A DNA stretch of 64,000 nt from Nannocystales bacterium (GCA_050633305.1 JBOEGF010000032.1:32001-96000), one strand, 5' to 3'; numbered from the stretch's first letter, positions 18,336-35,003 are shown. Notes: generated by a model not told the origin, from the sequence alone. Made by a program: numbers and translations.

Positions 18336-18974
18336 TCAGCGCGCATCGAAGGGCGCGAACGCGTCGTCGCGGCGAAGCTTCGCCAACAGCGCCAATCTGG
18401 AGCTGAACCCCAGCTTCCGCAGAAGGTTGGCGACATGGAACTTCACCGTTCGAGGGGTCACTTGCAGGGCTTCGGCCATCCCGATGGTTTGTCGGCCGTC
18501 CAACAGAAGGCGGAGGATTTCGCCCTCGCGCGGCGTCAGCTCTGAGATATCCAACCCCGGCGCCCGGCGCTGCGGCTGGGACTCCCCGACCGCATCCAAA
18601 CACCGCCTCATCACCGCCGTGCCCTCCGCGGCGCGATGCAAGGCGCCGCGAATCGCGGCGGCGGAGACCGGCTTTCGCAGGCAGGCGTAGACCCCGACGA
18701 AGAACGCCTCTCGGACGACGTCGGTCGAAAGATCGTGACCGACCACCACCGCCCGGCACGGGCGTTGCGCCTCGTGCAGCTGCAGCAGCACGTCGTACGC
18801 CTGCGGGTCCTCGTCGACGTCGAGCAGGACGGCATCCGGTTCTTCGGATGCCAGCAACGAGGCGGCCTCGACCGCCGCATGCGGACCCCGGACGTTGAAG
18901 TCGAACTCACCCAGGTTGCCGCCGGGGAATTCCGCGCCGGCGTGAGCGATGAACAGGATCTTCGGTCCGGACAT
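18336..18974 (-). CDS. LuxR/NarL-family regulator with atypical receiver domain
   Basis: HTH LTPREGEILRLLLDG...TVKFHVANLLRKLG; REC-like LLD...KP lacking the N-terminal acidic pair; ATG overlaps the hydrolase stop. Confidence 0.87.
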   Translation of the reverse strand: MSGPKILFIAHAGAEFPGGNLGEFDFNVRGPHAAVEAASLLASEEPDAVLLDVDEDPQAYDVLLQLHEAQRPCRAVVVGHDLSTDVVREAFFVGVYACLRKPVSAAAIRGALHRAAEGTAVMRRCLDAVGESQPQRRAPGLDISELTPREGEILRLLLDGRQTIGMAEALQVTPRTVKFHVANLLRKLGFSSRLALLAKLRRDDAFAPFDAR

Positions 18975-20059
18975 CAGGGGTCTGATTCTACCGCGGGCTC
19001 GCACGCAAAGTAGTACGAGGATCCGTAGTCGAAGAACTCGAACATTTCCCCGTAGACCGCGTCGACCGTGTCAGGGTCTCCGATGTACGGCGCATGGCCA
19101 GCCCCGGGGAGGACGCGTAGCTCGTGGGGGCCTCCGTAGTCGGCCGCCAGTGCCTGGACATCCTCGTACGGCGTAATGGGGTCTGCATCCCCCCACAACT
19201 GGAGCAGAGGACGAACACCTGCTTCCGCGGGGAGGACGGGGAGCTCAAATCCCTCGAGCGTCGGGCCGGTCGCGTACACCTCGGGGAACGTGCTGAACCC
19301 GACTTCCGCAGCCGCCGGATCGGCACCAGCCAGAATCAGCCCGTAGGCCGCCGGATCGGTTTCGACATACCCATCGGGAGCGGATTCGAATAATGCCAGT
19401 ACCTCGGGGCTGAAGAACACCGATTCGAACAATGGTGTGACCGACTCGTACACCATTGCCTGGACTGCCACCCGACCAATGTGCGATGGGGACGTTGGGC
19501 TTTGTGTACCGGCCAGCCCGACGGCAAGCGACGCTCCGAAGCTTGTTCCGAAGAGATCGACACGAGGCACCCCGCGTGCGTACCGAATACGCTCGACGAT
19601 CTCTGCGGCGTGTACCAAGGAACGCTCGGTCGTCACATCTGCGCCGTCCTCGGGAATCGAGCTGCCTGGATACCCTTCGTACGTGACCGCGTAGGCGAAG
19701 AACCCAGCCTCTGCGACCTCGTCGAGCGCATTGAGCCGGCTCTGCGGATCGACGTCCAGGTCATACATTCCTCCGGTGACCAACGTTCCGGGCAACATCA
19801 CGACCGCACGCCGCGGAAACCGTAGCGCGGCCGCCGGGGTGAAGCGCTCGGTCACATGCAGGACCGCACCGTCCTCGAGTTCGACGTCGTGCTCGATCGT
19901 CCACGATTGTTCACAGAACGCACCGCCGCGATGCACGGCTTCTTCCGCGAGGCCTTCATCAATCCACTGTTCCGGCACCAGGGCCGCATTCGTGCCGGCC
20001 GGCTCGCAACCAGCCAGGCAAAGGAGGAGAGGAAGAAACGAGCGTGAAGTTTTCGACAT
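18974..20059 (-). CDS. Alpha/beta-hydrolase lipoprotein
   Basis: Lipobox LAGC; nucleophile elbow GTSFG, GDAD acid, GAGH histidine. Confidence 0.82.
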   Translation of the reverse strand: MSKTSRSFLPLLLCLAGCEPAGTNAALVPEQWIDEGLAEEAVHRGGAFCEQSWTIEHDVELEDGAVLHVTERFTPAAALRFPRRAVVMLPGTLVTGGMYDLDVDPQSRLNALDEVAEAGFFAYAVTYEGYPGSSIPEDGADVTTERSLVHAAEIVERIRYARGVPRVDLFGTSFGASLAVGLAGTQSPTSPSHIGRVAVQAMVYESVTPLFESVFFSPEVLALFESAPDGYVETDPAAYGLILAGADPAAAEVGFSTFPEVYATGPTLEGFELPVLPAEAGVRPLLQLWGDADPITPYEDVQALAADYGGPHELRVLPGAGHAPYIGDPDTVDAVYGEMFEFFDYGSSYYFACEPAVESDP

Positions 20060-20080: not shown

Positions 20081-20176
20081 CACAATGAACCGCCCAATCG
20101 TCGGCCGCCATGGTCTTCACAATTCAGTTCGCGCGGGCCGGTGCGGTCCGAGGCTGCGCGAGCGCCCCTCGCCTCC

Positions 20177-20605
20177 GTGATCGTCTCCGAGCTGATCTCA
20201 CCGGTCCTGTTCGTACGCTGGCAGTCTCGCTGCGATGTCGCCGACGTCGACCGCATTACGCAGGCGATCGAGTCCGCGTACAAGAGCGTCGGAGAGGACC
20301 TCGTGTACATCGCGTCGATCCCCATCGGCGTGCCTCCGCCGGAAGCCGATGCCCGTGCAGCGATGCGTCAGGGAGCGGAACACGCGAGCCAGCGCTGCGG
20401 TTCGGTCCACGTCGTCATCGAGGGGCACGGCCTCCGTCGGGCGATCATCCGAAGTGTCTCCGCAGGACTTCTTCTTGCGACACGTGCGTCATTCTCCATC
20501 CACACGGACGCAGAAGAGGCTCTTCAAGCGGCGAGTCAAAACATCCCGTTCGAACTCCCGCACGTTCTGGCCGTTGCAAAAGAAAAGGGACTGGTGGCTG
20601 CATGA
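20177..20605 (+). CDS. Uncharacterised small protein (STAS/SEC14-like), paralogue of 27284..27742
   Basis: Shares FVRW, VxPPxxDxRAxM and CxxVHxVIEGxGxRRAxxRS with the 27284 protein; start uncertain (20141 or 20177). Confidence 0.72.
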   Translation: MIVSELISPVLFVRWQSRCDVADVDRITQAIESAYKSVGEDLVYIASIPIGVPPPEADARAAMRQGAEHASQRCGSVHVVIEGHGLRRAIIRSVSAGLLLATRASFSIHTDAEEALQAASQNIPFELPHVLAVAKEKGLVAA

Positions 20606-21600
20606 CTCAACACGACGACCCCGCTGCGCATCTGGCGACGATGCTCGACGGATTCCGGATTCCTCAATGCCTGTATGTTGCGTGCCAGCTCAACCTGGCG
20701 GCGCTCGTGCCACCGACGGGCCTCGAGACCGACGCTCTAGCGCAACTCGCCAGTGTTCACCCCGACGCGCTTCGGAGGCTGCTTCGCGCGCTCGCTACGG
20801 TGGGCGTTTTTCGTCCGACCGGAGACGATGCGTGGCTCCACACGCCCGCGAGCGAAGCGCTCGACCCCGAACACCCCGCAGGCCTCCACGACCGTGCAAT
20901 CGGGTTGGGTTCACTCGCCTGGGCATCATGGGGAGACTTGCTCAGCGCCGTGCAGACCGGCAAACCTTCGTTCGACTCGGTTCACGGGGCGCCATTCTTC
21001 GACCTACTGGGAGCCCAGCCTGAACTCGCAGCGGCATTTGGCCGAACGATGTCCTCGTGGACCCGTCAGACCGCGCGCGATGTCATTTCGACGTTCGACT
21101 TCGGCGCCTACGGACACGTGGTCGACATCGGGGGCGGCCACGGCATCCTGCTGGACGCGATCCTGGCTGCCGCTCCGAGCGTGAAAGGGACGCTGGTGGA
21201 TCGCCCCGAAGTCATCGGCACCAACGCCCCCGCCATGGGCGATGCACAGCGCTCGCGAGCGACCCTGAGCGCACTCGATGCGTTCAGCGACCCCCTCCCC
21301 TCCGCGGACGCCTACGTGTTGTCTTGGATTCTGCACGATTGGGACGACCAACGGTGCGTACAGTTGCTGTCTCGTTGTGCCCAGGCCAACCCGAGCGCCG
21401 ACATCGTCGTCGTGGAGATGTTGGTCGATGGCCCGGGGCCCGCGGCCACGTGGTTCGACCTGGAGATGCTCGTTCAGACCGGCGGTCGGGAACGAACGAC
21501 CGCCGAGTACCAATCACTGTTCCGCGCGGCAGGCAGAGAGGACGCGGAGGTCCTGCACACACCCGGAACCCACGCGGTGTTGTGCTCACGGGGAAGCTGA
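20602..21600 (+). CDS. SAM-dependent O-methyltransferase (COMT-like, with dimerisation domain)
   Basis: VVDIGGGHG, ILHDWDD, DLEMLVQTGGRERT; N-terminal LRRLLRALATVGVF. Confidence 0.9.
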   Translation: MTQHDDPAAHLATMLDGFRIPQCLYVACQLNLAALVPPTGLETDALAQLASVHPDALRRLLRALATVGVFRPTGDDAWLHTPASEALDPEHPAGLHDRAIGLGSLAWASWGDLLSAVQTGKPSFDSVHGAPFFDLLGAQPELAAAFGRTMSSWTRQTARDVISTFDFGAYGHVVDIGGGHGILLDAILAAAPSVKGTLVDRPEVIGTNAPAMGDAQRSRATLSALDAFSDPLPSADAYVLSWILHDWDDQRCVQLLSRCAQANPSADIVVVEMLVDGPGPAATWFDLEMLVQTGGRERTTAEYQSLFRAAGREDAEVLHTPGTHAVLCSRGS

Positions 21601-22653
21601 GAGCGCCACGTCGCCCCAACGCAACACCATCGCCATCGCGGTCGAAGCGCTTCCGACCGAATAGATCAGCACGAGTTCGCCCGGCTTGATTCGACCCTGC
21701 GACGCGGCGTGGTGAAGGTTCGCCATCATGAGCGCCGGACCGATGTTCGTCGTCCGCGGATAGACCGAAACCGTCTTTGACCGCTCGACACCGAGCACGT
21801 CCGCACAGAAGTCGGCATACCAAGCCGTCGGTGTGTTGAAGACAAATAGCGCGATGTCTGAGACCGAGACACCGGCGTCGGAGAGCGCGCCGTCGCACGC
21901 CGTTCGAAGGTAAGGTTCGGCCGTTTCGTGCAAGATGGCGCCAGCCCCTCGGGTGGTACGCATCTGCATTCGCGGCTCGCCTTGCTCGACGACGAGTTCG
22001 TGCACGAACGCGCCGCAGGTCTCGCGCGTGGAGATTCGGTGGGCACCCAGCGGGATCGCGACCCGATCCCCTCGCTCTACGACGAACGCGCCTGCACCAT
22101 CGCCGAGAAACCAGGACAACGAGTTCGTTTCCTCGACGTCGCGCGCGTAAGTACACGAGACCGACACGAGCACTCGGTTGGCGCGACCGCTCTCGACCAG
22201 GCCGCAGGCGAGGTCCACCCCCATCACGGCGCTGGAACACGCGGTCTCCAGGTTGATCGCGGGACACCTCAAGTCGAGCCGACGTCCGAGCCACGACGCG
22301 TCTCCGACGGCGATCGTGTCGGGGCGCATGGACGAGACGATCGCGAAGTCGCAGTCCTCGAGCCGACCCGACCACCCTTGTGCCAGGGCTTCGATCGCCT
22401 TCACGTGCAAATCGACACTCGCCGTTTCGCTGAGTTCGACCCGGCGCTCGACGCTCCCCTTGAACGGGTCCGCGCCGTAGGGCGCCATCGCCCGCTCGAA
22501 CAAGCTTCCCTTGCCCTCAGTCGCCCACAGGCGAGCCAGCGCATGCTGCTCGGCGTCGGCCACCATCTGCGGATGATGCTCCCGCCAGTAGTCGTTGGTG
22601 CGAAGGGTCGCTGGGAGCGCGACGGAGAGTGCGGATAGACCAACTTTTTTCAT
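21586..22653 (-). CDS. 3-oxoacyl-ACP synthase III-like condensing enzyme (furanolide-synthase-like)
   Basis: Catalytic Cys in ETACSS, GDGAGA, FNTPT in place of FabH HQAN, TNIGP; coupled to the ThDP enzyme. Confidence 0.85.
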   Translation of the reverse strand: MKKVGLSALSVALPATLRTNDYWREHHPQMVADAEQHALARLWATEGKGSLFERAMAPYGADPFKGSVERRVELSETASVDLHVKAIEALAQGWSGRLEDCDFAIVSSMRPDTIAVGDASWLGRRLDLRCPAINLETACSSAVMGVDLACGLVESGRANRVLVSVSCTYARDVEETNSLSWFLGDGAGAFVVERGDRVAIPLGAHRISTRETCGAFVHELVVEQGEPRMQMRTTRGAGAILHETAEPYLRTACDGALSDAGVSVSDIALFVFNTPTAWYADFCADVLGVERSKTVSVYPRTTNIGPALMMANLHHAASQGRIKPGELVLIYSVGSASTAMAMVLRWGDVALSASP

Positions 22654-24350
22654 GCGTCCCTCTGCGCAGCCAGGCTGCGATTGCGCGCGCCAAACGGCGC
22701 GGTTTCGTCGGAGTCGACAAGCACGTCGACCAAACATGGACCCCCACACCGCAGCGCCTCGCGCAGCGCCTCGTCGAGCAAGCTGGGGTCCCGCACGGTG
22801 ATGGCGTGGGCTCCCATGGCCCGCGCGATCGCAGCAAAGTCGACCGCCGGAATGTCGAGGCCGTGCGGGGTGTGCCCCAAGCCCTGCATGCCATCGGCGA
22901 CGAGTCCGTATCGGCCGTCATTGAGTACGACCCAAACCGCCGGCGCCCCCTGCTGAACCGCCGTGGTGATCTCGTTGTTCATCAGCATGGAACCGTCTCC
23001 AACGATGGCGACCGCAGGACCACCAACCCCCATCGCGGTGCCCACCACGCCGGCCGCCATGTGCCCCATGGAGCCGAACCCCATGCTGACGCGAAACCTT
23101 CCGGGGTGCTCGAAGCGAAGGGCATGGGTCGCCCACACAAACGCGTTCCCAGCCTCGGCGAGGACCTTGGCTCGCGTGCCGTCCACCACCACCCGCTGGA
23201 CGCTCTGCATCACGGCCCGGCATGGGACGCCGCGGCCAGTCGATCGCGCGTAGGTCGGCGAAACCGCGCGCATCGTGCCTCCGCCCCGCGGTGCATCGGA
23301 GGCTGGCAACACCTCGAGCAGTCGTGACAGGAGTCCCCGGATCTCAGCGGTCACGCCGACCGTTTCGACGTCGGAGTACGCGGCGCCGAAGACCGTCGAG
23401 TCGACGTCGACATGAACGATTCGAGTTCCCTCCACCAGTCGGGGATCCCAAAACGATGTGAACTCACCGAGCCGACTGCCCAACACCAAGGTCGTATCTG
23501 GTGCGAACCTTGTTCGGCGTTCGAACACGCGCTCATGTCCCCCAAAGCCAGTCACACCGAGGAACCTCGAGTCGGAAGCGGGGAAGATGCCCTTGCCACG
23601 CGGAGAACAGATCACCCGAGCGTCCAGCCGGTCGACTAAGGCACGTACCTGGGCCGATGCTTCGCGTGCTCCGTGTCCGACCCAGACCACCACTCGCTCG
23701 CCCAACGCAGCGCGAACGGCACGCGCTCCCTCCACCGAAATATCTGCATCGATATGGACGGGTGCCGGGCCAAGCGCCAAGGACGGCGCGTTCTGAATCT
23801 GTAGCGGAACCGCGATGTGGGCGACGAATCCCTGCGGCCGCCGCAGCCCCTCGAGGAGCCGGGCTCGAACGCGGGGGAGTTGCTCCGCAGACTCGAGTGC
23901 GATCGCGTCGTCGAACCACCCTCCTGCGCCGTAGAGGCCACAATGAGCGTAGTTCTCTGCATCACTGGCTTGGAACGAATATCGCCCCCGCAGCGGTGCG
24001 CCAGTCAACGCAGACACCAATATGACGCGACCGCCTTCGGACCGCGCTGCCGCGAGGCCGGTGATCGCGTTGGTCATCCCCGGGCCGGTTGTCGTGAACA
24101 CCAACCCTGGGCCGCCACCGGCGAGGTCGTGTTCAAGCGCCATGAAGGCCGCGCCGGCCTCATGCCGCGTGTGGATGGGATCGAGACCCGATTCCACCAA
24201 CGCGGAGAACATGGGGACCGCGGCCCCGCCGAGGATCCCGAACGCACGTCGGCATCCGATGTCCACCAGTGTCCTTGCGAGTTCCGACGACACCGTCGTC
24301 ATTCGCCCGTCGTCCACATCCACGGAAGGCTGGGCTTGTTGTTTAACCAT
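22650..24350 (-). CDS. ThDP-dependent enzyme (acetolactate synthase/ScyA-like acyloin synthase)
   Basis: RHEAGAAFMA, TTGPGMTNA, GSMGH, GDGSMLMN...LNDG; start uncertain (24302-24437). Confidence 0.88.
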   Translation of the reverse strand: MVKQQAQPSVDVDDGRMTTVSSELARTLVDIGCRRAFGILGGAAVPMFSALVESGLDPIHTRHEAGAAFMALEHDLAGGGPGLVFTTTGPGMTNAITGLAAARSEGGRVILVSALTGAPLRGRYSFQASDAENYAHCGLYGAGGWFDDAIALESAEQLPRVRARLLEGLRRPQGFVAHIAVPLQIQNAPSLALGPAPVHIDADISVEGARAVRAALGERVVVWVGHGAREASAQVRALVDRLDARVICSPRGKGIFPASDSRFLGVTGFGGHERVFERRTRFAPDTTLVLGSRLGEFTSFWDPRLVEGTRIVHVDVDSTVFGAAYSDVETVGVTAEIRGLLSRLLEVLPASDAPRGGGTMRAVSPTYARSTGRGVPCRAVMQSVQRVVVDGTRAKVLAEAGNAFVWATHALRFEHPGRFRVSMGFGSMGHMAAGVVGTAMGVGGPAVAIVGDGSMLMNNEITTAVQQGAPAVWVVLNDGRYGLVADGMQGLGHTPHGLDIPAVDFAAIARAMGAHAITVRDPSLLDEALREALRCGGPCLVDVLVDSDETAPFGARNRSLAAQRDA

Positions 24351-24480
24351 CATCATCCTTGACGGCGTCATGCCGTTTCGACCAGCATGGATCGGCGCGG
24401 CTTGTTTCGCACTGTATGCAACACGGATTGACTGCAATGAGCGCCCACACTGCCCCGGGATGTCGCACCTTTTTCATGCT

Positions 24481-24500
24481 ACCTGTCCCTTAGGACAGCT
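24481..24500. promoter_or_regulatory. Lux-box-like 20-bp palindrome
   Basis: ACCTGTCCCTTAGGACAGCT (arms CTGTCC/GGACAG); TACCGT -10-like hexamer at 24522-24527. Confidence 0.6.
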
Positions 24501-24536: not shown

Positions 24537-24959
24537 ATGCAGGATGCGGATGAACGCGCACAATTGCGTGTATTGGTCCGCCACAGAGCGGACGCCTTTG
24601 CCGCCGCGGCAATGGTCAAAGCACTCGCTCACGGGGTGGGCTCCAGTGCCGTGCAGGCTTCCATGATCGCCACCGCGACCACCGAGCTAGCCCAGAACAT
24701 CGTCTCGCATGCCGGGGGAGATGGTGAGGTGATGGTTTGGCTCGAGGGCGAGAACATCGTCGTGCAAGCGCGGAGCGTTGGGGTCGGTGATGGCGGTCGC
24801 GAGGCCCCTGCTGCACCGACGCGCGGAGGGCTCGGTCAGGGGCAGGCAGCCGTGCGCCGCATGATGGATTCGGTGGTGTTCGAGTCCGCAAGTGACGGTG
24901 GGCTGGTGGTCACCGCCCGCGTTCGCATCACCCCGCTCGAGAGGTCCGTATGCTGGTGA
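24537..24959 (+). CDS. RsbT-like GHKL protein, probably degenerate
   Basis: TELAQNI N-box and GLGQG present; G1 box DxGxG reads SVGVG. Confidence 0.75.
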   Translation: MQDADERAQLRVLVRHRADAFAAAAMVKALAHGVGSSAVQASMIATATTELAQNIVSHAGGDGEVMVWLEGENIVVQARSVGVGDGGREAPAAPTRGGLGQGQAAVRRMMDSVVFESASDGGLVVTARVRITPLERSVCW

Positions 24960-25585
24960 ACGAACTGCTCGAGGAGCGCCTCTTCGGCATGCTGGTCCGG
25001 TACACGTCCGAACCCACCGCGCGCGGCATTCTTCAGCGGGCGCGGCGGGGACAGAACGCAAAACGTGGAGACGCCAAGGCGTACTTCGACATGGTGATGT
25101 TCGGCGCAAAGCTGTTCGTCGAAAATACGCGCCACGCCGACCTGACCGAGTCTCTGCAGCAGGTGTGCTTCGGGGCGATTCGCATCGAGCCCCCGCGCAC
25201 AAGTCCGCACGAGGTCGAGATCGAGGACGAGCACTCCTCTCGACGCGCCCGACTCCTGGTTCGCAGGCTGGTGCGGGCCGCAGGCGGTCGGGAGCTCACC
25301 GCGGTACGAGCCGCCACGGCACTGAGCGAGCTCACTCGCAACGCGCTGATGTACGCAGGTGGCGGGTCGGTACGGGTCGAGATGAACGACCGAGACCGGA
25401 AGCTGCGCGTGGTGGTGCGCGACGACGGGCCGGGCATCAGCGACCTCGACCGAATCATGGCGGGAAACTACCGCAGCAAGACGGGGCTGGGCCGCGGACT
25501 CCTTGGCGTCCGAAAACTCGCCGACCACTTCAACGTCCAGACGTCGGAGTCCGGCACGACGATCTGCTTTGAGATGCTCGTATGA
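24950..25585 (+). CDS. rsbT: RsbT-like Ser/Thr kinase with N-terminal extension
   Basis: SELTRNALMYAGGG, DDGPGI, GLGRGL. Confidence 0.85.
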   Translation: MLVNELLEERLFGMLVRYTSEPTARGILQRARRGQNAKRGDAKAYFDMVMFGAKLFVENTRHADLTESLQQVCFGAIRIEPPRTSPHEVEIEDEHSSRRARLLVRRLVRAAGGRELTAVRAATALSELTRNALMYAGGGSVRVEMNDRDRKLRVVVRDDGPGISDLDRIMAGNYRSKTGLGRGLLGVRKLADHFNVQTSESGTTICFEMLV

Positions 25586-26148
25586 GGCTCACGACCGCAC
25601 AACGCATGCGGCCCTACCCCGGGTTCAGCTCGTCCGGTGACCTGGTCGTCGTTCGGCAGGGTCGCTCTTGCACGATGCTCGCCGTCATCGACGTGCTCGG
25701 TCATGGACCCGACGCTGCCCAGGTTGCAACTCAGGCCGGCGAGTACCTCGGCCGGGCAGACCTCGACGCGGATGTAGAGGCGTGGATGCACGGCTTGCAC
25801 GAAGCACTAGCTCGGACCCGGGGCGCCGCGGCAGGATTGGGGCGAGCCGAAGACGGCGCGCTGCAGGTCACCGTTGTCGGCAACATCGAGGTCCGCTGCT
25901 GCGGCACGCGTGTCGGGGTCATCGCGACGCCGGGAATCGTGGGGCGGCGGATGCGACGACTCCGCTCCTTCTCGTTTCCCATGCAGGCCGGGGACCGTCT
26001 CGCCATGCACAGCGACGGCCTCCGCCACCTAGACCTCGCGCCGACGCGCGAGTTGCCCCTAGAAAACGCCTGCGACCACCTGATGCGCGAGTTCGCCGTC
26101 GCGATCGACGACGCTTCGCTTCTCCTGACCGACTTTCACGATGCTTGA
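25582..26148 (+). CDS. rsbX: PP2C/SpoIIE-type phosphatase, RsbX-like
   Basis: SGD, AVIDVLGHG, VGNI, PGIVG, SDGL, DDASL. Confidence 0.8.
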   Translation: MRLTTAQRMRPYPGFSSSGDLVVVRQGRSCTMLAVIDVLGHGPDAAQVATQAGEYLGRADLDADVEAWMHGLHEALARTRGAAAGLGRAEDGALQVTVVGNIEVRCCGTRVGVIATPGIVGRRMRRLRSFSFPMQAGDRLAMHSDGLRHLDLAPTRELPLENACDHLMREFAVAIDDASLLLTDFHDA

Positions 26149-26581
26149 CCACCTCGACGACGACCTCGAGTCCCCCCTGCCGATTATCTGGCTGTGGGAC
26201 TGCATGCTCGTACCCTTGCAGGGCGAGCTCAGCGACGCCCAAGCCGCTCGCTTGAGCCAAGACGCCCTCGACGGGATCCGAGCCCGCGGGTGCGTCGGCC
26301 TGATCATCGACGTGTCCGGGCTGTGGTTGGTCGACAGCCATCTGTGCGCGGTCCTGGCCGACATCGCCCGCGCGGCACGACTGATGGGGACCCGCACCAT
26401 GCTCTCCGGGCTTCGGCCCGAGGTCGCGCTCACCCTCCTGGCGATGGACATCTCGTTCAGCGGATTCGAGACGGCACTCAACCTCGAGCAGGCCCTCGAG
26501 GCTCTGAACATTCGCCGCGCCGAGGACCCCTCCGACAACCCCTTCGACGGCAACGTCCCCAAGCTGCAACGCGATGACTGA
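26141..26581 (+). CDS. rsbS: Stressosome STAS protein RsbS
   Basis: LVPLQGEL, IIDVSGLWLVDS (phospho-Ser position), LMGTRTMLSGLRPEVALTL, TALNLEQAL. Confidence 0.88.
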   Translation: MLDHLDDDLESPLPIIWLWDCMLVPLQGELSDAQAARLSQDALDGIRARGCVGLIIDVSGLWLVDSHLCAVLADIARAARLMGTRTMLSGLRPEVALTLLAMDISFSGFETALNLEQALEALNIRRAEDPSDNPFDGNVPKLQRDD

Positions 26582-27287
26582 CGCTTCACCACCCATTCAA
26601 ATCGAGCCGCCTCGCGTCGCGGCGCTGCTCGATGTGCTCTCCATGATCGCAGTTGGCGAGCTGGACATGGAGGCCATCAACCTCAAGCTTCCTCCCAATA
26701 CCGACGCGTTTGGTGAGGTCGAGACGATGCTGCGCACGCTCGCGGCCGACCTTGGCGAGGTGCTGCAAGCCAACGAGCACTACACCCAGCAGATCGAAGC
26801 GACGGCCCGGGAGCTCCAGGCCAAGCTCGATACGATCGAGCGTCAGCAGCTTGCGATCGCCGACCTGTCCACGCCTGTCCTCGAGATCTGGACCGACGTG
26901 CTGGCCCTCCCCATCGTGGGTATCGTGGACACCCAGCGCTCGGTCGAGATGACGGAGCGACTGCTTCAGGCGATCGTCATCCGACAAGCCCGCTGCGTCA
27001 TCATCGACATCACAGGTGTGGATGTCGTCGACACCGCGACGGCCGACCACTTCGTGAAGATGGTCCGCGCGGCGGCGATGCTTGGTGCTCACTGCGTCGT
27101 CTGTGGCATCAGCCCCGATGTCGCCCAAACCCTCGCGCGCATCGACGTCGAGCTCACCGACGTCACCACGATGCGCAGCCTCAAGGACGCGCTTCATCAC
27201 TGCCTGGCACACATCGAGAACATGGAGAGACCCCGTGCCCGCCACCGCCGGGCAGCGCTCGCCCGAAACGAGGAGAACGAACCGTGA
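26574..27287 (+). CDS. rsbR: Stressosome STAS protein RsbR with HAMP-like N-terminus
   Basis: LSTPVLEIW, LPIVGIVDTQR, IDITGVDVVDT, GISPDVAQTL. Confidence 0.9.
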   Translation: MTDASPPIQIEPPRVAALLDVLSMIAVGELDMEAINLKLPPNTDAFGEVETMLRTLAADLGEVLQANEHYTQQIEATARELQAKLDTIERQQLAIADLSTPVLEIWTDVLALPIVGIVDTQRSVEMTERLLQAIVIRQARCVIIDITGVDVVDTATADHFVKMVRAAAMLGAHCVVCGISPDVAQTLARIDVELTDVTTMRSLKDALHHCLAHIENMERPRARHRRAALARNEENEP

Positions 27288-27742
27288 CATGTACCCGTGG
27301 AAACATCGACAATCTCTACTTCGTGCGCTGGATTCAACCTGAGGTCTCCGATGCCGTCGCGATCGTGGACGACATCCGAGCCTTGCGACGGTCCTCGGAG
27401 CAGGCTCTGCACTACTTCGCGATCATCGGCCCCGACGTCGACCCTCCGGGCGACGACGTGCGGGCCTCCATGAAGGAGAGCATCGACGACTTGCTTCAGC
27501 ACTGCGCCACGGTGCACCTCGTGATCGAAGGCAAAGGGTTTCGCAGGGCGATGGCACGAAGTATCGGGACGGGCATCTTCTTGCTCTCCAAAAACCGGGG
27601 TCGCACGTTCGCCCACGACCGCGTCGAAGATGCGCTCGCGCGCGCAGGGCTTTCGAGCACGGAGGTCGAGTCGGTCCGCGCCAAGGCGGCGAGCCGGGGC
27701 CTGCTCAACGATGCCGCGGCCGAAGCGGCGCCGCCCAACTAA
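27284..27742 (+). CDS. Uncharacterised small protein (STAS/SEC14-like), paralogue of 20177..20605
   Basis: GTG overlaps the rsbR stop; shares motifs with the 20177 protein. Confidence 0.75.
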   Translation: MTCTRGNIDNLYFVRWIQPEVSDAVAIVDDIRALRRSSEQALHYFAIIGPDVDPPGDDVRASMKESIDDLLQHCATVHLVIEGKGFRRAMARSIGTGIFLLSKNRGRTFAHDRVEDALARAGLSSTEVESVRAKAASRGLLNDAAAEAAPPN

Positions 27743-27810: not shown

Positions 27811-29505
27811 TCAACCGCAGTCGACGTCGACATCCGCCAGGCCGCCACGACTCCGGATGACGAGAATGTCGGTGCAGTCGTCCGCGTCCAAGGCCGTGTT
27901 CTTGGCCCGCAGCCGATCGTTGTTGCGGAACGTCTCGTTGTTGGCCAGCCCCTCGACGTTGCGAAGCTCTGACCCGCGCGCATCGACGTCGGTCAGGACC
28001 TCGTGCAACTCGAGTCCATCGAGGTTTCGGACGCCGGAGTCCTCAAGCGTGAGCGACGTCAGGCGCTCCCACGTTGCCACGAACGCGACGCTGCGCAGCG
28101 GGTTCCCCGAGACATCGATCGACTCCATGTCCGTGAGACTGGCCAAGGGGGAGAGGTCCTCGACGCCCGTATTGGCTAGCGCGAGGCTCTGAAGCCGTGC
28201 TCCAGCGGCGATCTGCTCGACGTTCTCTGCCGACACGGGCGTTCCGGACAAGTCGAGCGCTTCGAGCGTCGGAAGCTCGGCGACCACGGCGAGCGAGGTC
28301 TGCCCCGCATCTGCGTAGATGATCCTGCGCAACACCTCTCGTCCCGCGAGACCGGAGAGGTCGAGCGTTTGCCCTGCCCCTCCCGCCGCAAGCTGCCCCA
28401 GCAGCGGCAACGTCGCGACCGCATCCACGGAGGTCACCGACGGGTTCTGACGCAGGTCCAAGTTGCGCAGCTCCGGTAGGCCCTCGACCGCCGAGATATC
28501 CGAGAGTTCGTTCTGAGCGACGGTGAGCCGGCGCAGACTCACCAGAGTCTCCACGCCTGCGAGCGAGACCAGGCGGTTATTCCCCAGAGACAGGGTCACC
28601 AAGTTCAGCAAGCCCGCGACCTCGGCCGTCGTGCTGACCTGGTTGTCGTTGGCGGAGATCTCAATGAGCCCTGGTTTGTCCTGGACGCCGTCGAGAGTGG
28701 TCAACGCGTTTCCACTGACTTCGAGTTCGACCAGTCCCGTCGCGCTTCGTAGCGGCACGAGAGACGTGATCTCGTTGGCATCGAGATCGAGATAGCGGAG
28801 CTCGCTTAGACCATCGAGGCCGTCGATGTTCGACAGCGCGTTGTCGGCCAGCGACAAAGAGACGAGCTGGTCCAAGCTCCCCAGCGCGGACACATCCGTG
28901 ATCTCGTTGCGCGACAGCATGAGGTTGGTCAGTCCGCTCAGCCCGGCCAACGGAGAAAGGTCGCTAACCGCGTTGCTCGACGCGTCGAGTCCTGTCAGCG
29001 TCTGAATCGAAGCGAGCGGTGACAGGTCGGAGATACCGTTCCCGTCAATTGCGACAACCTCGAGCCTCTCGAAGCCCTGCAACGCGGTGAGGTCGGTGAG
29101 TTCGTTGTTCGACAGCTCGAGCTGCCGGATTCCCGAGAGGTCCTCGAGCGGTGAGAGGTCCGTGATGGCGTTGCCGGAGAGGCCGAGGGTTTCCAGGCGT
29201 AGCCCGCACTCCAGACCGCGAAGGTCTGTGATGCCAAGGTCGGTGGCCCGCAGACCGGTGAGTTTCTGGAGTTCCTGCGCGAGCACGACGGGCGGCGGCT
29301 CTTCCTCGGCGTCCTCGGGTGGCTCGGGCTGCGGGAGGACTGATTCGAGCAACGCACGAAGGGCGGGATCGGGGACCTCGACCTCCCCGACGCACAACGC
29401 GACCTCGTCGTCGTTCGAAAGGATGTAGCCATCGCCGGGCACCTCCTCGGCGCAACCGACCGATGCGAGCAACAAGCAAACAGCCGCACAAAGCCCCCCT
29501 CTCAT
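27811..29505 (-). CDS. Internalin-like leucine-rich-repeat lipoprotein
   Basis: Lipobox SVGC; DPALR cap; many 22-aa LxxLxLxxNxIxDLSPL repeats. Confidence 0.9.
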   Translation of the reverse strand: MRGGLCAAVCLLLASVGCAEEVPGDGYILSNDDEVALCVGEVEVPDPALRALLESVLPQPEPPEDAEEEPPPVVLAQELQKLTGLRATDLGITDLRGLECGLRLETLGLSGNAITDLSPLEDLSGIRQLELSNNELTDLTALQGFERLEVVAIDGNGISDLSPLASIQTLTGLDASSNAVSDLSPLAGLSGLTNLMLSRNEITDVSALGSLDQLVSLSLADNALSNIDGLDGLSELRYLDLDANEITSLVPLRSATGLVELEVSGNALTTLDGVQDKPGLIEISANDNQVSTTAEVAGLLNLVTLSLGNNRLVSLAGVETLVSLRRLTVAQNELSDISAVEGLPELRNLDLRQNPSVTSVDAVATLPLLGQLAAGGAGQTLDLSGLAGREVLRRIIYADAGQTSLAVVAELPTLEALDLSGTPVSAENVEQIAAGARLQSLALANTGVEDLSPLASLTDMESIDVSGNPLRSVAFVATWERLTSLTLEDSGVRNLDGLELHEVLTDVDARGSELRNVEGLANNETFRNNDRLRAKNTALDADDCTDILVIRSRGGLADVDVDCG

Positions 29506-29724: not shown

Positions 29725-31059
29725 TCAGCCTTCGGCCGCCGGGGGTGCCAACGCCTTGAACAGCTCCGTGCGCTCCTTGTGGACCTGCTTGAAGCTTGCG
29801 TCCGAGATCACATAGAACCATTTGTCGAACCGAAGACGCAGCTTCGCAGCCTTCTCCGCGCCCAGGCGAGCGGCCTCTTCATCGATCACGGGAGCGGGTG
29901 CAGGCGGCTCCCCTTCGGCCGCAGGCTCGGCGGGCGGGGCCGCGGTTGTGGCGGCCTGGTCGAGCGTCCCGTCGTAGCGAACGTCCACGAACATGTAGCG
30001 ATTCGCGGTCTTGCCCTCCTCCCCTTCTCCTCCGCCAGCGGCGCCTTCATCCGGACCCCCTGCGGTGAGAGCGGTTCCGGAGTCGAACGTGACCTCACCG
30101 AAGTACAGCGTGTACACGATGCCGCCCTTGGTGATGATCGACGCCTGGCCTTCGTTGCCAAACAGCTGACGTCCGTCGGGCGTGACAAAGAAGCCCTTGG
30201 ACTGTAGCGCCGGAAGCGTCAGGACCTCAGGTCGAGGGCGGACACCGACGATCTTGACGTTGGCCGCCGAGGTGACCATCTGTCGAACCTTGCTGGCGTC
30301 GAGTTCCGTGCCCTCAGGCGCGAGCGTGGGCGCGACCGCAGCCCAGGCGTCTTTCCCGTCGGCGCCCGGCTTCAGCGCGGCCACGACCGGGTTGGAACCC
30401 ATGACCTTGCCTTGCGCCTCGTCGACCGAGTACGGGTCGTAGACGACCTGCACGATGTCGTCTTTCTCGACGTGCAACAGGTCCTTTTCGATCCAGTCGC
30501 CGAAGTCGGTCGACACATCGAGGGTCAGCTTCGCGCCGTAGACCCGCTTTTCCTCGGGCAGGCGAACGTAGTAGACGCCCTGTTTGCCCTCAGGCTGCTT
30601 GCCGACGATCACATCGACCAAGACCGTGCCCGAAGCATCCTTGATGGTGATGCGCTGGCCTTTCTCGTCGCCCTTGCCCTCGGTCCCCTCGGGATCGAGC
30701 ACACCAAAGTTGGCGTGCTCCTCCACCTTGTCGCCGTAGTAGACGTCCTTTTTGACGTCGATGAACGATGCGGCAGCCTTGCCCATGCGTTCCGTACCGT
30801 CCGCCGGGTAGTCGTTGTGGCTGGGGATCACCCACAAGCCGGCCTTTTGCTCGACGGCAAACCGGGCCACGGTCGCCTGGTCCTCGTCCCACGACACCAC
30901 GGACAACGACGTCGCGAGGGCGGGGTCCGAGAACGCTGAGAAGAGCACCTCACCGGTGTCTTCGAACTGCGCCTGGGGCAGGTTCTTGGGCCGCATCGAC
31001 CACGCACCGCCTGCGGTACCCAGCGCGATGGCGACCACCATGATGGTTGCGCGGTTCAT
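29725..31059 (-). CDS. DUF4340-like membrane-anchored protein of Gld-type ABC operon
   Basis: N-terminal anchor, WVIPSHNDYPAD, YYVR; last gene of the ABC operon. Confidence 0.7.
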   Translation of the reverse strand: MNRATIMVVAIALGTAGGAWSMRPKNLPQAQFEDTGEVLFSAFSDPALATSLSVVSWDEDQATVARFAVEQKAGLWVIPSHNDYPADGTERMGKAAASFIDVKKDVYYGDKVEEHANFGVLDPEGTEGKGDEKGQRITIKDASGTVLVDVIVGKQPEGKQGVYYVRLPEEKRVYGAKLTLDVSTDFGDWIEKDLLHVEKDDIVQVVYDPYSVDEAQGKVMGSNPVVAALKPGADGKDAWAAVAPTLAPEGTELDASKVRQMVTSAANVKIVGVRPRPEVLTLPALQSKGFFVTPDGRQLFGNEGQASIITKGGIVYTLYFGEVTFDSGTALTAGGPDEGAAGGGEGEEGKTANRYMFVDVRYDGTLDQAATTAAPPAEPAAEGEPPAPAPVIDEEAARLGAEKAAKLRLRFDKWFYVISDASFKQVHKERTELFKALAPPAAEG

Positions 31060-33053
31060 GCTTTACCTGCTTTCGATGCCGAAGCCCCATGCCGCCGCGC
31101 CGCGGGGATGTTGTCCCGCTCTCTGAGGCGTTTGCGCATGAAGATGAAGATGCCCATCAACAGGGCCGGGATTGGAGGAAGCAGCAGCGACCAGATCCGA
31201 ATGCGGTTTTGGATCTCGTCGACGCTTCGTCGGTGCTCCGTCTCCGTCCGGGCGACCGCGCGCTGTTTGTCGCGCTCGATCGTTTCGGTCTTGGCGATGA
31301 GGCGGCGGTTCTCCGTCTCCTCAGCGCTCTTGAGCAACACCTGTTTGGTGGTCTCGTCGAGGTCTGCTCGCTCCTTGACCGCCGCGACCGCAGCTTCGAG
31401 GGCGGTCTTGGCTTCTTCGAGTTCGGCGTCCGCGGCCTTGTTGGCAGCGTCGATCTGCGCCTGCCGTTGCTCCCGAGCATCCTTGGTCTCTTCGTCGAGC
31501 TTCGTCAACCGACGGAAGGTCTGTCGCCGCCTACGGAGTTCGACGAACCGGTCGTCCCCGGCCAGCGAATCGACGGCGTTGAGTAAGAAGGACACGTTGT
31601 CGAAGCGCACGTCATCCAGACCATCGCCATCGACGTCGCCGCCACGGGAGTGCATCTGGAAGAAGAGGTCACCGAACAAGTCGAGGTCGGCCAACACGAT
31701 CAGGTTACGATCGGCGTGGCCCCCTGCCCCGTCCTCGCCCTCTCCGGCGACCGCTCCGCCCTTGATCCGTGCGCCCATCACGTAGCTCTCCGCTGTCGCC
31801 TCACCCAGCGCGCGCGGAGGAATGGGACCCTGCATGCCGAACAGCGGGTGACGCTGCACCATGTCGTCGAACACGTTGACGCCGGAGGCCTTGGACGTGG
31901 TCAGCAGCGGCGTGAACTTGTCCTGATACCCGTCGGCAGCCTTGATGGCGCCGGGGTAGAGCAGCACCACTTGGCTGAGCCCATCCACAGTGGCGTCGAT
32001 ACCGTCGAACTCGGTGACGCCGCTACCGTCCGAGCGATGCGCGAAGACGATCTGCGGCTGGATCCCCGCGAACACGGGGTTGGGGTTCGTGCGGTCGTAG
32101 ACGATCTGGTCGTCTGCCCACTCGACACCGAAGTCGCGCAGCAGGCCCAGGTAGTCACCTTTGGGCTCCGAGGGCGGGCCGCCGCCGAACATGTTGTTCT
32201 GCTGCTGGCCCGGCGGAGGAAGCTTGTCCTCGCGGGGCGAGAGCCGAACGTCGAACAACGGCATGGGGTCGGCGGTCAGGAGCGCGGGCCGACCGGCGTC
32301 CACGTAGACGCGCACCGTGTCGAGCTCTTCCTGGGAGCAGCTCGCAAGCTGCGGGACCAGCAGAACATCGACGTCTTCGGGGATCTCCGCCTTGGGGTTG
32401 AGGCTACGAACCTCGTACTGCTTCTTCAGCTCGGCGATGATCTGCCACGCCGGCTGCTGGCGCTTGGCCTGCAGATCGAAGTTGCCCATGATCGTCGCGT
32501 CGTTGCGCAACACGCCGACCACGCGCTTTTTCTCTTGCGTGACGACTCGAAGCGCGCGGGCCACCTCGTACTCGACGGACAGACCGCGATCGAGGAACGG
32601 CACGACCTCTTCGCGCGGTCCCGAGACGAAGGCGAGGCCCATGAAGACCTCCATCGCGTCGACCCGGCCCGCCGAACGATCGGCGAGCTGGCGCGGCACG
32701 ATACCGAAGTTCTCCATCGCGTCTTCGGCCTCGAGCGAGAACGGCTCGGGCTCGACGATGCGAACGATGAGTCCCTCTCCCCCCTGCGCTTCCATGGTGC
32801 GCAGGATGTTGAGCAGGCGCGTGCGCGCGGTGACGTACTCGCGGGGCACCTCCTTGGAGATGAACGCATGCACGGTGACCGGACGCTCGACACCGATGCC
32901 TTGGATCACCCCGAGCGAGTCGGGCGTGATCTCAGAGAGGTGTTCTTCGGTGACGTCGGCGAACGAGTTCGCGCGCGCCCCCATGTATCCGACCGACGCT
33001 GCGGCGGCGACCAAGGAGAAGAAACGGACCAGCTGATGGTTGCGGCGGGTCAT
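31056..33053 (-). CDS. GldG-like ABC auxiliary component
   Basis: DVTEEHLSEITP, EYEVARAL, FLLNAVDSLAGD, C-terminal TM. Confidence 0.8.
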   Translation of the reverse strand: MTRRNHQLVRFFSLVAAAASVGYMGARANSFADVTEEHLSEITPDSLGVIQGIGVERPVTVHAFISKEVPREYVTARTRLLNILRTMEAQGGEGLIVRIVEPEPFSLEAEDAMENFGIVPRQLADRSAGRVDAMEVFMGLAFVSGPREEVVPFLDRGLSVEYEVARALRVVTQEKKRVVGVLRNDATIMGNFDLQAKRQQPAWQIIAELKKQYEVRSLNPKAEIPEDVDVLLVPQLASCSQEELDTVRVYVDAGRPALLTADPMPLFDVRLSPREDKLPPPGQQQNNMFGGGPPSEPKGDYLGLLRDFGVEWADDQIVYDRTNPNPVFAGIQPQIVFAHRSDGSGVTEFDGIDATVDGLSQVVLLYPGAIKAADGYQDKFTPLLTTSKASGVNVFDDMVQRHPLFGMQGPIPPRALGEATAESYVMGARIKGGAVAGEGEDGAGGHADRNLIVLADLDLFGDLFFQMHSRGGDVDGDGLDDVRFDNVSFLLNAVDSLAGDDRFVELRRRRQTFRRLTKLDEETKDAREQRQAQIDAANKAADAELEEAKTALEAAVAAVKERADLDETTKQVLLKSAEETENRRLIAKTETIERDKQRAVARTETEHRRSVDEIQNRIRIWSLLLPPIPALLMGIFIFMRKRLRERDNIPAARRHGASASKAGKA

Positions 33054-33055
33054 GA

Positions 33056-34003
33056 CTACCAGTGCCTCCGGCCAAGCAAGAACGAAGCGAGATACAGAAG
33101 GACGGCGATGCCGCCCGCGAAGTACAGGACGTCTCCGAGCCGGACGACGCCTTCGCCGAAGCTTGCGACGTGGTCGGTGACCGACAAGGCATCGAACACA
33201 TCGACAAAGCCGTTGCCGTCGCGAAGCGCCGCGGCGCCGGCCTCAGAAGCAGCCTCAGAAGCAGCCTCAGAGTCGGACGCCGGAGCGCTCTGTGAGCCGC
33301 GCCCGGCGAGCAGCCACGCGAACGTCGCCGCCAAACCGCCCACAAGACCCCCGATACCGGCAGCCGAGCCCTTGTTGGTGAGCGTGAAGGTGGTCAGCGC
33401 CGCTGCGGCACCGATGAGTGCCGCGCCGAGCAACCCGCTGGCCCACGGCTGCGTCCCTGCGAACACCAGACCTGCACAGCCCAGAGCGCCCAGGATGAAC
33501 GCAACGGTGGCGTTCTTGGTCAGCATGGACGCCACCAGCCCAATGGCGCAGAACAGCGCCCCCATGAGCAAGTAGCCCAGGTAGGTCGAGACCATCAGCC
33601 CCATGTCGGGGTCGCCCAGGTACATCAGCACCCCGACGTTGGACAGCGAGAACGCCAGCGAGATGGCGTACATGCCCAGCACTCCAAAGTACTTTCCGAG
33701 AACAACCTCGACATCGCGGACCGGCATGGTCAACAGCAGTTCGTCGGTCCCACCGCGACGCTCCTCGGCCCACGCGCCCATCGTGATGGCGGGGACGAAG
33801 AACATGAGGATCGCCGGCATCATCGCGTTGAGTTCGGCGAGGTCGGCGAGGTTGCGTGCGAAGAAGCCGTCCTGAAGGAACGCCGCTGCGGCGGTCGTCG
33901 CGATGAACAGCGTGAGGAAGACGTACCCGGTGGGATTGCCGAGGTACTGGCGCATGTCCTTTCGGAACACGGCCGAGACGACACCAAAGTCGATACCCAT
34001 CAT
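33056..34003 (-). CDS. ABC-2 permease, GldF-like
   Basis: PAITMGAWAEERRGGTDELLLTMP, VVLGKY, SMLTKN. Confidence 0.88.
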   Translation of the reverse strand: MMGIDFGVVSAVFRKDMRQYLGNPTGYVFLTLFIATTAAAAFLQDGFFARNLADLAELNAMMPAILMFFVPAITMGAWAEERRGGTDELLLTMPVRDVEVVLGKYFGVLGMYAISLAFSLSNVGVLMYLGDPDMGLMVSTYLGYLLMGALFCAIGLVASMLTKNATVAFILGALGCAGLVFAGTQPWASGLLGAALIGAAAALTTFTLTNKGSAAGIGGLVGGLAATFAWLLAGRGSQSAPASDSEAASEAASEAGAAALRDGNGFVDVFDALSVTDHVASFGEGVVRLGDVLYFAGGIAVLLYLASFLLGRRHW

Positions 34004-34803
34004 GCAGCCCCTTTCTTGTTCTGTGGCTTTTTCTGTGACTTGTCCTGGTTCTTGCCCTCGGTGAGGTCATAGAACCGGTCTTCGATCGAGCCAGCCTTGA
34101 GCAACTCGTCCTTGGACCCGGTGAAGGCGATCTTGCCGTTGTAGACGAAGACCACATCGTCGGCCACGGCCTCCACCTCTTGAAGGATGTGGGTCGAAAG
34201 CAGGATGGTCTTCTCTTGACCCAGCTCTCGGATGAGCGCTCGCACCTCCCTGATCTGGAGCGGATCCAGGCCTGAGGTGGGCTCATCGAGGATCAAGACC
34301 TCCGGGTCGTGGAGCAGGGCCTGCGCCATGCCGACCCGCTGCCGAAAGCCCTTGGAGAGCTTGTCGATCGGCTTGTGAAGAACCTCCCCGATCGCACACC
34401 GCGAGACGACGTCGCGGATCCGCTTGGCCGAACCGTCCAGCTTGCGGATCGAAGAGACGAACTCCAGCGACTCCTGCGGGGTCATGTCCCGGTACAACGG
34501 GCCCGACTCGGGCAGATAGCCCAGTCGCCGCGCCAGCTCGATGCGGGTGTCCGCATCGGAGGGGTCGAACCCCAGCACCTCGGCTCGACCCGAGGTGGGC
34601 GAGGAGAAGCCGGTGAGGATCTTCATCGTGGTCGACTTGCCGGCACCGTTGGGGCCCAAGAACGCGGCCACGGTGCCCTTGCGGACCTCGAAGGAGACGT
34701 CGTGAAGCGCGGCAAACTGGCCGTAGATTTTACTCAGTCGGTCGGCCCGGATGGTGACCGGCCGATCGCTTGGCGTCCGGTAGGGGCTGTCTTTTTCGCT
34801 CAT
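34000..34803 (-). CDS. ABC transporter ATP-binding protein, GldA-like
   Basis: GPNGAGKST, LSKGFRQR, ILDEPTSGLD, STHIL. Confidence 0.93.
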   Translation of the reverse strand: MSEKDSPYRTPSDRPVTIRADRLSKIYGQFAALHDVSFEVRKGTVAAFLGPNGAGKSTTMKILTGFSSPTSGRAEVLGFDPSDADTRIELARRLGYLPESGPLYRDMTPQESLEFVSSIRKLDGSAKRIRDVVSRCAIGEVLHKPIDKLSKGFRQRVGMAQALLHDPEVLILDEPTSGLDPLQIREVRALIRELGQEKTILLSTHILQEVEAVADDVVFVYNGKIAFTGSKDELLKAGSIEDRFYDLTEGKNQDKSQKKPQNKKGAA

Positions 34804-35003
34804 GGAAAGCGGTTCCTCCTGCATCAAAGAACGGTCGAGAACGGTGTCTGGCCGAGCATGGCTTGACGTTTGGACCGCGTGCCCGGCGCGGCGCACATGG
34901 TAAAGCCCGGTGCTCCAACGTCAACCGACAACCGACAAAAAGGGCACCTCAGGCTCCTGGCCGAAATTCCGTCTGGAACGTCGCGTGGCCTACCATTCAC
35001 GCG

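Follow-up and report, generated by a model that had tools for sequence, protein, structure and literature searches.

A CybE/CybF-like enzyme pair in a Nannocystales bacterium lies within a conserved hydrolase, stressosome and response-regulator module that may point to lactone signalling

Two kinds of gene system described previously resemble the locus reported here. In the cyanobacterial cyb, ncl and mac clusters (CybBCEF; PMC12395478, PMC13288894, PMC9324945), a thiamine diphosphate (ThDP)-dependent enzyme, CybE, and CybF, an enzyme resembling ketoacyl-acyl carrier protein (ACP) synthase III (KAS III), are encoded with an ammonia lyase and a coenzyme A (CoA) ligase, whereas the myxobacteria Plesiocystis pacifica and Enhygromyxa salina carry a co-localised pair of cybE and cybF homologues from which the remainder of the operon is missing (PMC8777810); in the portions of that source available, these pairs are not genetically linked to the deoxyenhygrolides and enhygrolides of their hosts. 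Here we describe a ThDP/KAS III-like pair in a 64,000-nucleotide (nt) stretch of DNA from a Nannocystales bacterium (the window, whose numbering is used for all coordinates). The pair belongs to the CybE/CybF-like family, judging from sequence comparisons, and it is flanked by an α/β-hydrolase, a LuxR-type response regulator, an Rsb (stressosome) operon and a promoter palindrome, all of which a preliminary description of the locus had passed over. What is new is the conserved synthase-hydrolase-stressosome-regulator module; the literature searched, consulted in part and with subscription journals mostly not covered, contains no such module and no study in which a furanolide pair is connected with a stressosome or a hydrolase. 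As a hypothesis with a probability of roughly 45%, we propose that the pair builds a furanolide-type lactone and that the hydrolase, Rsb operon and LuxR-type regulator tie this molecule to signalling.

The pair and its immediate surroundings comprise the following genes.

22650..24350, minus strand: ThDP-dependent acyloin synthase, ScyA/CybE-like, 566 amino acids (aa) from the ATG at 24350 (Pfam TPP N/M/C, NCBIfam, PDB, tree)
21586..22653, minus strand: KAS III-like CybF-family enzyme, 355 aa, with Cys139, Asn273 (at the FabH His position) and Asn303 (Pfam, PDB alignment, homologue alignment)
20602..21600, plus strand: class I S-adenosylmethionine-dependent O-methyltransferase, convergent (Pfam Methyltransf_2 and dimerisation domain)
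20141..20605, plus strand: h154, small unannotated protein whose true start may be near 20177 (no Pfam or NCBIfam match)

Of three in-frame ATGs, the third (24350), preceded by AAGGA, is the most likely start of the ThDP gene, and an ATGATG run at this point is kept in relatives in the promoter alignment. Window bases 22650-22653 read TCAT, so that the ThDP and KAS genes are coupled on the minus strand through an ATGA overlap, and the convergent O-methyltransferase gene overlaps the end of the KAS gene by 15 bp (21586-21600), both as the preliminary description had it. The methyltransferase is ATGA-coupled to h154 and, among the loci compared, occurs only where the module belongs to the window's clade. 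Another contig carries, near transposase-like open reading frames (ORFs), a fragment of 65 codons with 85% identity to it (G000:C30:22091-22285, L102:4092-4286; L and G numbers denote our loci and genomes).

Membership in a furanolide-synthase-like family, proposed in the preliminary description, is borne out by NCBIfam scores and by the trees of both enzymes. The ThDP enzyme contains the Pfam TPP_enzyme N, M and C domains, and its best NCBIfam models are ScyA-related and ScyA (about 570 bits, E 1e-170, with cut-offs of 1000 and 1020 not reached) versus 175 bits (E 3e-51; cut-off 538) for biosynthetic acetolactate synthase (acolac_lg); its best solved relatives in the PDB are BbmA and CsmA. 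The KAS III-like protein scores 65 bits against the fabH model, for which the cut-off is 292. It has a predicted thiolase fold (predicted local distance difference test, pLDDT, 89), and a fold search with this model returned PqsC/FabH-type folds only, at about 20% identity, with no CybF structure matched. A protein search with KAS gave 725 matches among 8000 candidates, the named ones being myxobacterial, and a scan of species-representative genomes yielded 80 loci in Myxococcota, cyanobacteria and a few others. One of these (L016) is P. pacifica contig ABCS01000004, where the KAS, at 368 aa, and the ThDP gene, by its position, agree with PPSIR1_40635/40640, the cybF/cybE homologues of the supplement to PMC8777810; the window proteins are 49% (KAS) and 42% (ThDP) identical to these. 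The window's clade stands beside the Plesiocystis/Enhygromyxa pairs, as sister and with weak to moderate support, in both the KAS tree (Shimodaira-Hasegawa approximate likelihood-ratio support, SH-aLRT, 81; a quick tree with 21 near-redundant Nostoc loci left out) and the ThDP tree (SH-aLRT 93, for a group including L012), and the genome's two own FabH-like proteins are set apart from the window KAS with a support of 100. The phylogenetic check proposed in the preliminary description thus places both enzymes with the myxobacterial pairs and not with the housekeeping FabH-like proteins.

The Plesiocystis/Enhygromyxa pairs resemble the window in having adjacent ThDP and KAS genes, no lyase or ligase in the locus, and the same Cys, NTPT and Asn motifs (PMC8777810, in the portions available), and the window thus agrees with the two-gene myxobacterial type in having a co-localised pair without the rest of the operon. 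Unlike in the window, however, no hydrolase, O-methyltransferase or Rsb operon lies within 8 kb of the pair in L016, L057 (on a contig that differs from that of the SWB007 pair named in PMC8777810) or L072. The cyb/ncl/mac ThDP and KAS enzymes are homologous to the window's, and the window shares with the four-gene CybBCEF type a ThDP gene followed by a CybF-type KAS gene; it has no ammonia lyase, CoA ligase, 3-deoxy-arabino-heptulosonate 7-phosphate (DAHP) synthase or halogenase in the locus, with signalling genes there instead, and is therefore not a member. Likeness to CybF was judged against the P. pacifica homologue and against uncharacterised lyase- and ligase-containing clusters, in place of the Tolypothrix CybF; five such clusters (L068, L073, L075, L078 and L080; DAHP synthase, lyase, ligase, ThDP and KAS) encode a KAS 43-45% identical to the window's. 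In Nannocystaceae there are also CybF-family KAS genes whose flanks, as far as retrieved, contain no ThDP gene (L010, L014, L017 and L020).

On either side of the pair lie the genes that set this locus apart.

18974..20059, minus strand: α/β-hydrolase with an N-terminal hydrophobic stretch and a LAGC lipobox-like motif (Pfam Abhydrolase)
18336..18974, minus strand: response regulator with receiver and LuxR/GerE helix-turn-helix (HTH), overlapping the hydrolase stop (Pfam)
24537..24959, plus strand: RsbT-like small kinase, HATPase (Pfam, NCBIfam)
24950..25585, plus strand: two-domain RsbT-like kinase (Pfam, NCBIfam)
25582..26148, plus strand: RsbX-like SpoIIE/PP2C phosphatase (Pfam)
26141..26581, plus strand: RsbS-like STAS protein (Pfam, NCBIfam)
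26574..27287, plus strand: RsbR-like protein with a short N-terminal region and STAS domain (best PDB matches RsbR chains, E 1e-28 to 1e-22)
27284..27742, plus strand: h152, small unannotated protein of a myxobacterial family (no Pfam match)

The Rsb operon stands upstream of, and divergent to, the ThDP gene, and the hydrolase and regulator lie downstream of the pair; the hydrolase and the Rsb genes each have a single match in the window's genome (tblastn). As in the RsbRST-X stressosomes (PMC4976288, seen in part), RsbR and RsbS STAS proteins, RsbT kinases and an RsbX phosphatase are all encoded, such that the stressosome gene set, known here from its genes, is complete in one operon. The window RsbR is unlike those of known stressosomes in that its N-terminal region is short and matches no globin domain, and in having a small-molecule synthase as neighbour. 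The hydrolase is predicted to be a surface-anchored lipoprotein; its S152/D272/H301 (A3 numbering) are invariant in 30/30 alignment rows, and the best fold match to its predicted model (pLDDT 92) is StnA (Z 29.2), followed by lipases. Bacillus RsbQ, an α/β-hydrolase that hydrolyses and perceives butenolides in Rsb signalling (10.1101/2023.12.05.570042, seen in part), resembles the window in that a hydrolase stands next to Rsb genes and in the theme of butenolides. We nonetheless rejected RsbQ orthology, given a Z of 23.5 (rank 29) against 29.2 for StnA, and a lipobox-like N terminus versus the cytoplasmic RsbQ. h152 is a paralogue of h154 (36% identity) with a weak SpoIIAA-like lead; its Atlas clusters are unnamed, the nearest named being PF11964 on 18% of members (score 0.87). 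Beyond the Rsb operon, a gene for an internalin-like leucine-rich-repeat lipoprotein (27811-29505) and a gliding-motility-type ATP-binding cassette/DUF4340 set (29725-34896) are syntenic in close relatives only.

The module travels with the pair in several myxobacterial lineages that are only distantly related. The KAS gene is patchily distributed, being present in 32/72 family genomes. Strong hydrolase matches are found in 10 of the 72, all with KAS: adjacent on one contig in eight, and split at contig ends in two. Strong matches to the two-domain RsbT occur in eight, always at 4 kb or less from KAS; a further 30 genomes have weaker RsbT matches, none adjacent to KAS. Strong response-regulator matches in these genomes occur only beside the hydrolase. 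When metagenomes were scanned starting from the hydrolase, a ThDP or KAS gene was present in 17/27 loci, and ThDP, KAS and Rsb genes were all present in 7/7 loci longer than 11 kb, the other 20 loci being shorter than 8.5 kb; a class-wide search with the hydrolase matched 16/399 genomes. Among 42 non-cyanobacterial pairs flanked by 5 kb on either side (a set that includes close relatives and loci found via the hydrolase search), 12 have both hydrolase and Rsb genes, two have the hydrolase only, none has Rsb only and 28 have neither; L025 is scored as Rsb-negative in these counts, its RsbT falling under the tblastn threshold, though its locus map shows RsbT. Proteins of the h152/h154 type are present in 11/14 of the well-flanked hydrolase-positive loci versus 0/28 negative loci, and response regulators and kinases recur beside hydrolase-bearing pairs.

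Three gene orders were found, corresponding to three separate KAS clades: that of the window; an operon type, hydrolase-ThDP-KAS-RsbT-X-S-(190 aa)-R-T' plus kinase and regulator (L025, L028, L030, L033, L036, L159 and L162); and a third in which KAS-ThDP is divergent from hydrolase-RsbT'-T-X-S-R (L158 and L160), the latter two orders occurring outside the family. The linkage is kept across all three orders and at about 45-48% KAS identity, and it has thus been kept long through rearrangement, although repeated recruitment is not proven.

Other arrangements around related genes were also seen. In G461, one contig carries both a ThDP/KAS pair and, about 20 kb away, an Rsb module whose subtype is a different one (C234:113067 and 133762; L130 and L131), which may be chance. 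A Nostoc-type ThDP and KAS pair is widespread: in 27 loci (L037-L070, L079) it is followed by a GDSL hydrolase, often with a short-chain dehydrogenase/reductase and a WD40 protein, and neither lyase nor ligase is present. This is another instance of a hydrolase accompanying a bare pair, here with a different hydrolase fold. In one myxobacterial clade (L008, L011, L013, L018, L021 and L022), the pair stands after luciferase-like monooxygenases and before a convergent hybrid histidine kinase. A second, divergent ThDP gene (27% identical to the window's; G000:C18:791809-794966, L100:7926-12051) lies directly behind a distinctive histidine kinase with no KAS following; the same kinase type adjoins operon-type modules L025, L028, L030, L033 and L036, and in G359 a His-retaining KAS comes after an orthologue of this ThDP gene (L104).

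The active site of the KAS III-like protein was described as non-canonical in the preliminary description. Its residues were read correctly there: Cys139 lies in ETACSS, Asn303 in TNIGP, and NTPT (273-276) aligns with the HQAN of FabH (PDB 1ub7 and 2ebd) and of the genome's two FabH-like proteins. The triad is not, however, peculiar to this copy. In the best 120 of the 725 KAS homologues, the query counted as one, Cys139 and Asn303 never vary, and at positions 273-276 there are 117 cases of NTPT and three of NTPV, so that NTP[TV] is found in 120/120; NTPTAW is also present in the published P. pacifica homologue and in the five cyanobacterial clusters noted above. We therefore discarded NTPT as a special mark: NTP[TV] is the family norm, and a His-retaining HTPV/HTPT subclade (L025, L028, L030, L033 and L036) bears the same module. 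In the residues around Cys, CTY, WFLGDGA, NTPTAW and the second Asn, the window KAS matches the pairs of furanolide producers and the lyase- and ligase-containing clusters, and partner-less members of the NTPT family differ from it at CTY and WFL. Such members include cyanobacterial CybF-family proteins of about 490-530 aa (L081, L083, L084 and L076), without a ThDP partner and beside genes for salicylate synthase, benzoate-CoA ligase and nonribosomal peptide synthetase (NRPS)/polyketide synthase, which are likely aryl-starter transfer enzymes. On plasmids of Streptomyces microflavus and Mycetohabitans rhizoxinica, genes for ACP, adenylation and acyl-CoA dehydrogenase come after a CybF-family KAS gene (L086 and L087).

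The genes that supply precursors in cyanobacteria are missing, as the preliminary description had noted. Neither a lyase, a CoA ligase nor an ACP was found among the 13 ORFs scanned at 18.3-29.5 kb (Pfam, NCBIfam), and tblastn with a cyanobacterial lyase and three ligases gave no match in the window. Its genome (92% complete) and G402 each have one aromatic lyase, with an SH motif, which we take to denote the histidine type. The genomes of L016 and L057, unlike the window's, have a second aromatic lyase with an FH motif; G480 and G481 have two aromatic lyases, and L200 is a second lyase of the module-bearing genome G359. Because only a histidine-type lyase was found in its genome, the acyl donor used by the window's bacterium is likely to differ from cinnamoyl- or coumaroyl-CoA, or else to be imported. 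To this extent the earlier proposal of acyl-CoAs from primary metabolism is supported; its use of O-methylation as the mark of an unusual product does not, in that cyanobacterin analogues bear methoxy groups (PMC12481558, seen in part) and ThDP-KAS-methyltransferase triplets also occur on a Gloeothece plasmid and in L103. Nor is a minimal two-gene layout new. Bare pairs have been published (PMC8777810) and are common among the 42 non-cyanobacterial pairs, of which one has a lyase and three a ligase within 8 kb; among 43 mostly cyanobacterial pairs both genes are present in 10, the remainder being mainly one Nostoc clade. As first described, the pair is another example of the published two-gene type.

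The ThDP and Rsb starts are separated by 186 bases, a shared divergent promoter with two conserved elements.

24481..24500, no strand assigned: 20-bp palindrome ACCTGTCCCTTAGGACAGCT with lux-box-like outer arms (promoter alignment, matrix scan)
24408..24420, no strand assigned: second conserved promoter element, TGCAYACAGTGC on the minus strand (promoter alignment)

The palindrome, with the core CTGTCC-N4-GGACAG, is nearly invariant in 10/11 aligned loci and degenerate in L006, and its arms are identical to the canonical lux-box outer arms ACCTG...CAGGT (PMC2568817, seen in part). It also precedes the hydrolase-regulator genes in L148 and L194, and weakly in L012. A matrix built from nine sites found 14 genome sites, counting the training site, that score at least 15 bits; of these, 11 are non-coding in a genome that is 14.5% non-coding, versus a mean of 7.4 sites and a mean of 1.0 (maximum four) non-coding for 25 shuffled matrices; several sites are near protein-kinase or response-regulator genes, as judged from N-terminal sequences. 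Non-coding matches forming a candidate regulon in G000 are at C13:89879, C10:636733, C65:6291, C14:459332, C65:52866, C20:182500, C8:12669 and C43:101747. Scans for sigma-70 promoters and terminators were at chance level. LuxI/LuxR cassettes have in common with the window a 20-bp palindrome with lux-box outer arms before a synthase and a LuxR-family HTH protein nearby; unlike them, the window has no LuxI among the neighbours, and its regulator has a receiver and no acyl-homoserine-lactone-binding domain. Five palindromes of the same class surround a ThDP/KAS locus in G448 (L138:2522, 13200, 15311, 16310 and 16400), a genome without the window's regulator.

By analogy with CybE/CybF (PMC12395478, seen in part), the ThDP enzyme would join two 2-oxo acids supplied by the transamination of amino acids, one of them probably an arylpyruvate and the other aliphatic, into an acyloin acid, which the KAS III-like enzyme would O-acylate via Cys139 with an enoyl-CoA and close to a ring in what is formally a Morita-Baylis-Hillman (MBH) step with hydride shift; no FabH-type His for malonyl decarboxylation would be needed. 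The gene content of the genome suggests that the enoyl-CoA is likely non-cinnamoyl and drawn from amino-acid or fatty-acid breakdown, and that the O-methyltransferase may cap a phenol in the window's clade only. From the neighbourhood we infer that the lipoprotein hydrolase would open or trim the ester or lactone outside the cytoplasm, that the response regulator would bind the palindrome and drive the synthase and Rsb operons together, and that setting the response, or passing it on, would fall to the Rsb module. The lactone may then be a signal rather than an ordinary natural product, for which nostoclides, as mediators of cell density (PMC9324945, seen in part), offer a precedent. A fuller scheme of self-contained, furanolide-based myxobacterial cell-cell signalling, with the pair making the signal from primary metabolites, the surface lipoprotein hydrolase destroying or processing it, the stressosome relaying it and the regulator autoinducing through a palindrome that also marks about 10 other promoters, is doubtful at present.

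Several observations weigh against the proposal. No member of the window's clade has been observed to yield a product, and CybF has been assayed only with cinnamate-type donors (PMC12395478, in the portions available); only the histidine-type lyase was found in the genome. The NTPT motif does not of itself imply ring closure, because the NTPT family includes ThDP-less members beside salicylate synthase, benzoate ligase and NRPS or ACP genes. The hydrolase, to judge from its predicted model, is no closer to RsbQ than to many esterases; it occurs without the pair in L188 and L191 (two fetched loci), and 28/42 pairs, including those of Plesiocystis/Enhygromyxa, lack both it and the Rsb genes. The co-occurrence is not statistically independent, hydrolase-positive loci having been found partly via the hydrolase; a test on independent pairs had only two of these and hence no power (sign test p 1), and a single origin of the linkage is not rejected by the approximately unbiased test (p-AU 0.08 for the KAS tree and 0.30 for the Rsb tree, from which long-branch L129 was dropped and L025 is absent). 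Lastly, the matrix scan found no palindrome in the operon-type loci, which have another regulator, or in L158 and L160; the palindrome is present in family genomes without the window's regulator (L126, L129, L138 and L139), and the window's genome has 14 GerE/LuxR-domain matches. Because of this mismatch and these matches, the binder of the palindrome is not established.

These points bear differently on the alternatives. An unlikely one, worth serious thought even so, is that the pair forms an acyloin and then acylates it with no ring being closed, giving an acyloin ester or a linear C-acylated diol or ketol for which the hydrolase is the matching esterase. Saturated acyl-CoAs cannot undergo the MBH step, and no cinnamoyl source was found in the genome; NTPT-family members suggestive of plain acyl transfer (ThDP-less, beside aryl-CoA ligase/NRPS or ACP genes) and StnA and lipases as fold matches to the hydrolase also speak for this explanation. 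Linear products of ThDP and KAS III-like pairs have a precedent in the carbazole starters NzsH/NzsJ and CqsB3/CqsB1, where, as in the window, a ThDP acyloin synthase is followed by an acylating KAS III-like enzyme, CqsB1/NzsJ acting before the cyclase; those systems need an ACP and the NzsI/CqsB2 cyclase (PMC7466098, seen in part), none of which is annotated among the window's 13 ORFs, h152 and h154 being unannotated. Ring closure is favoured by the nearest named relatives being pairs of furanolide producers and by the match to furanolide-type pairs at the Cys surroundings, CTY, WFLGDGA, NTPTAW and the second Asn, of which CTY and WFL differ in partner-less members. Enoyl-CoAs from amino-acid and fatty-acid breakdown are, moreover, generally available.

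That the product is a furanolide of the ordinary defensive or competitive kind, like the enhygrolides, and that the Rsb and hydrolase genes are inherited neighbours, upstream controllers or self-protection with no signal loop, is improbable to much the same degree. The unrejected single origin and the 28 pairs lacking both components speak for it, as do the resemblance of the palindrome to a wider regulon and the commonness of Rsb modules, mostly unlinked (an RsbT match in 38/72 family genomes, linked in eight). Set against these are the survival of the linkage through three gene orders and to about 45-48% KAS identity, the regulators, kinases and h152-type proteins that recur by hydrolase-bearing pairs, and the missing precursor-supply and tailoring genes. 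A housekeeping acetolactate synthase with FabH, to which the Pfam domains common to IlvB and FabH would point, is scarcely credible. We rejected this identity on the NCBIfam scores, on Asn273 in place of the FabH His, on the genome's two other genes of FabH type, both with HQAN, and on ketol-acid reductoisomerase, for which 4/4 genomes gave only weak partial matches and no full-length match; the patchy distribution of the pair argues likewise.

Should the signalling link fail, the locus would be one more uncharacterised CybE/CybF pair. The proposal of a lactone tied to signalling bears on matters listed as open questions for stressosomes, namely the activating signals of most of them and their outputs in Gram-negatives (PMC4976288, in the portions available); where such an operon has stayed beside a hydrolase and a small-molecule synthase in distantly related lineages, the product becomes a candidate for the ligand or the output, and one that two enzymes would suffice to make in vitro. 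The donors of furanolide synthases, which are natural MBH catalysts, would be extended beyond cinnamates. Marine and soil myxobacteria would gain a candidate chemical signal, and the fuller scheme of furanolide-based cell-cell signalling, if true, would provide the first example of a signal synthase with a genetic link to a stressosome.

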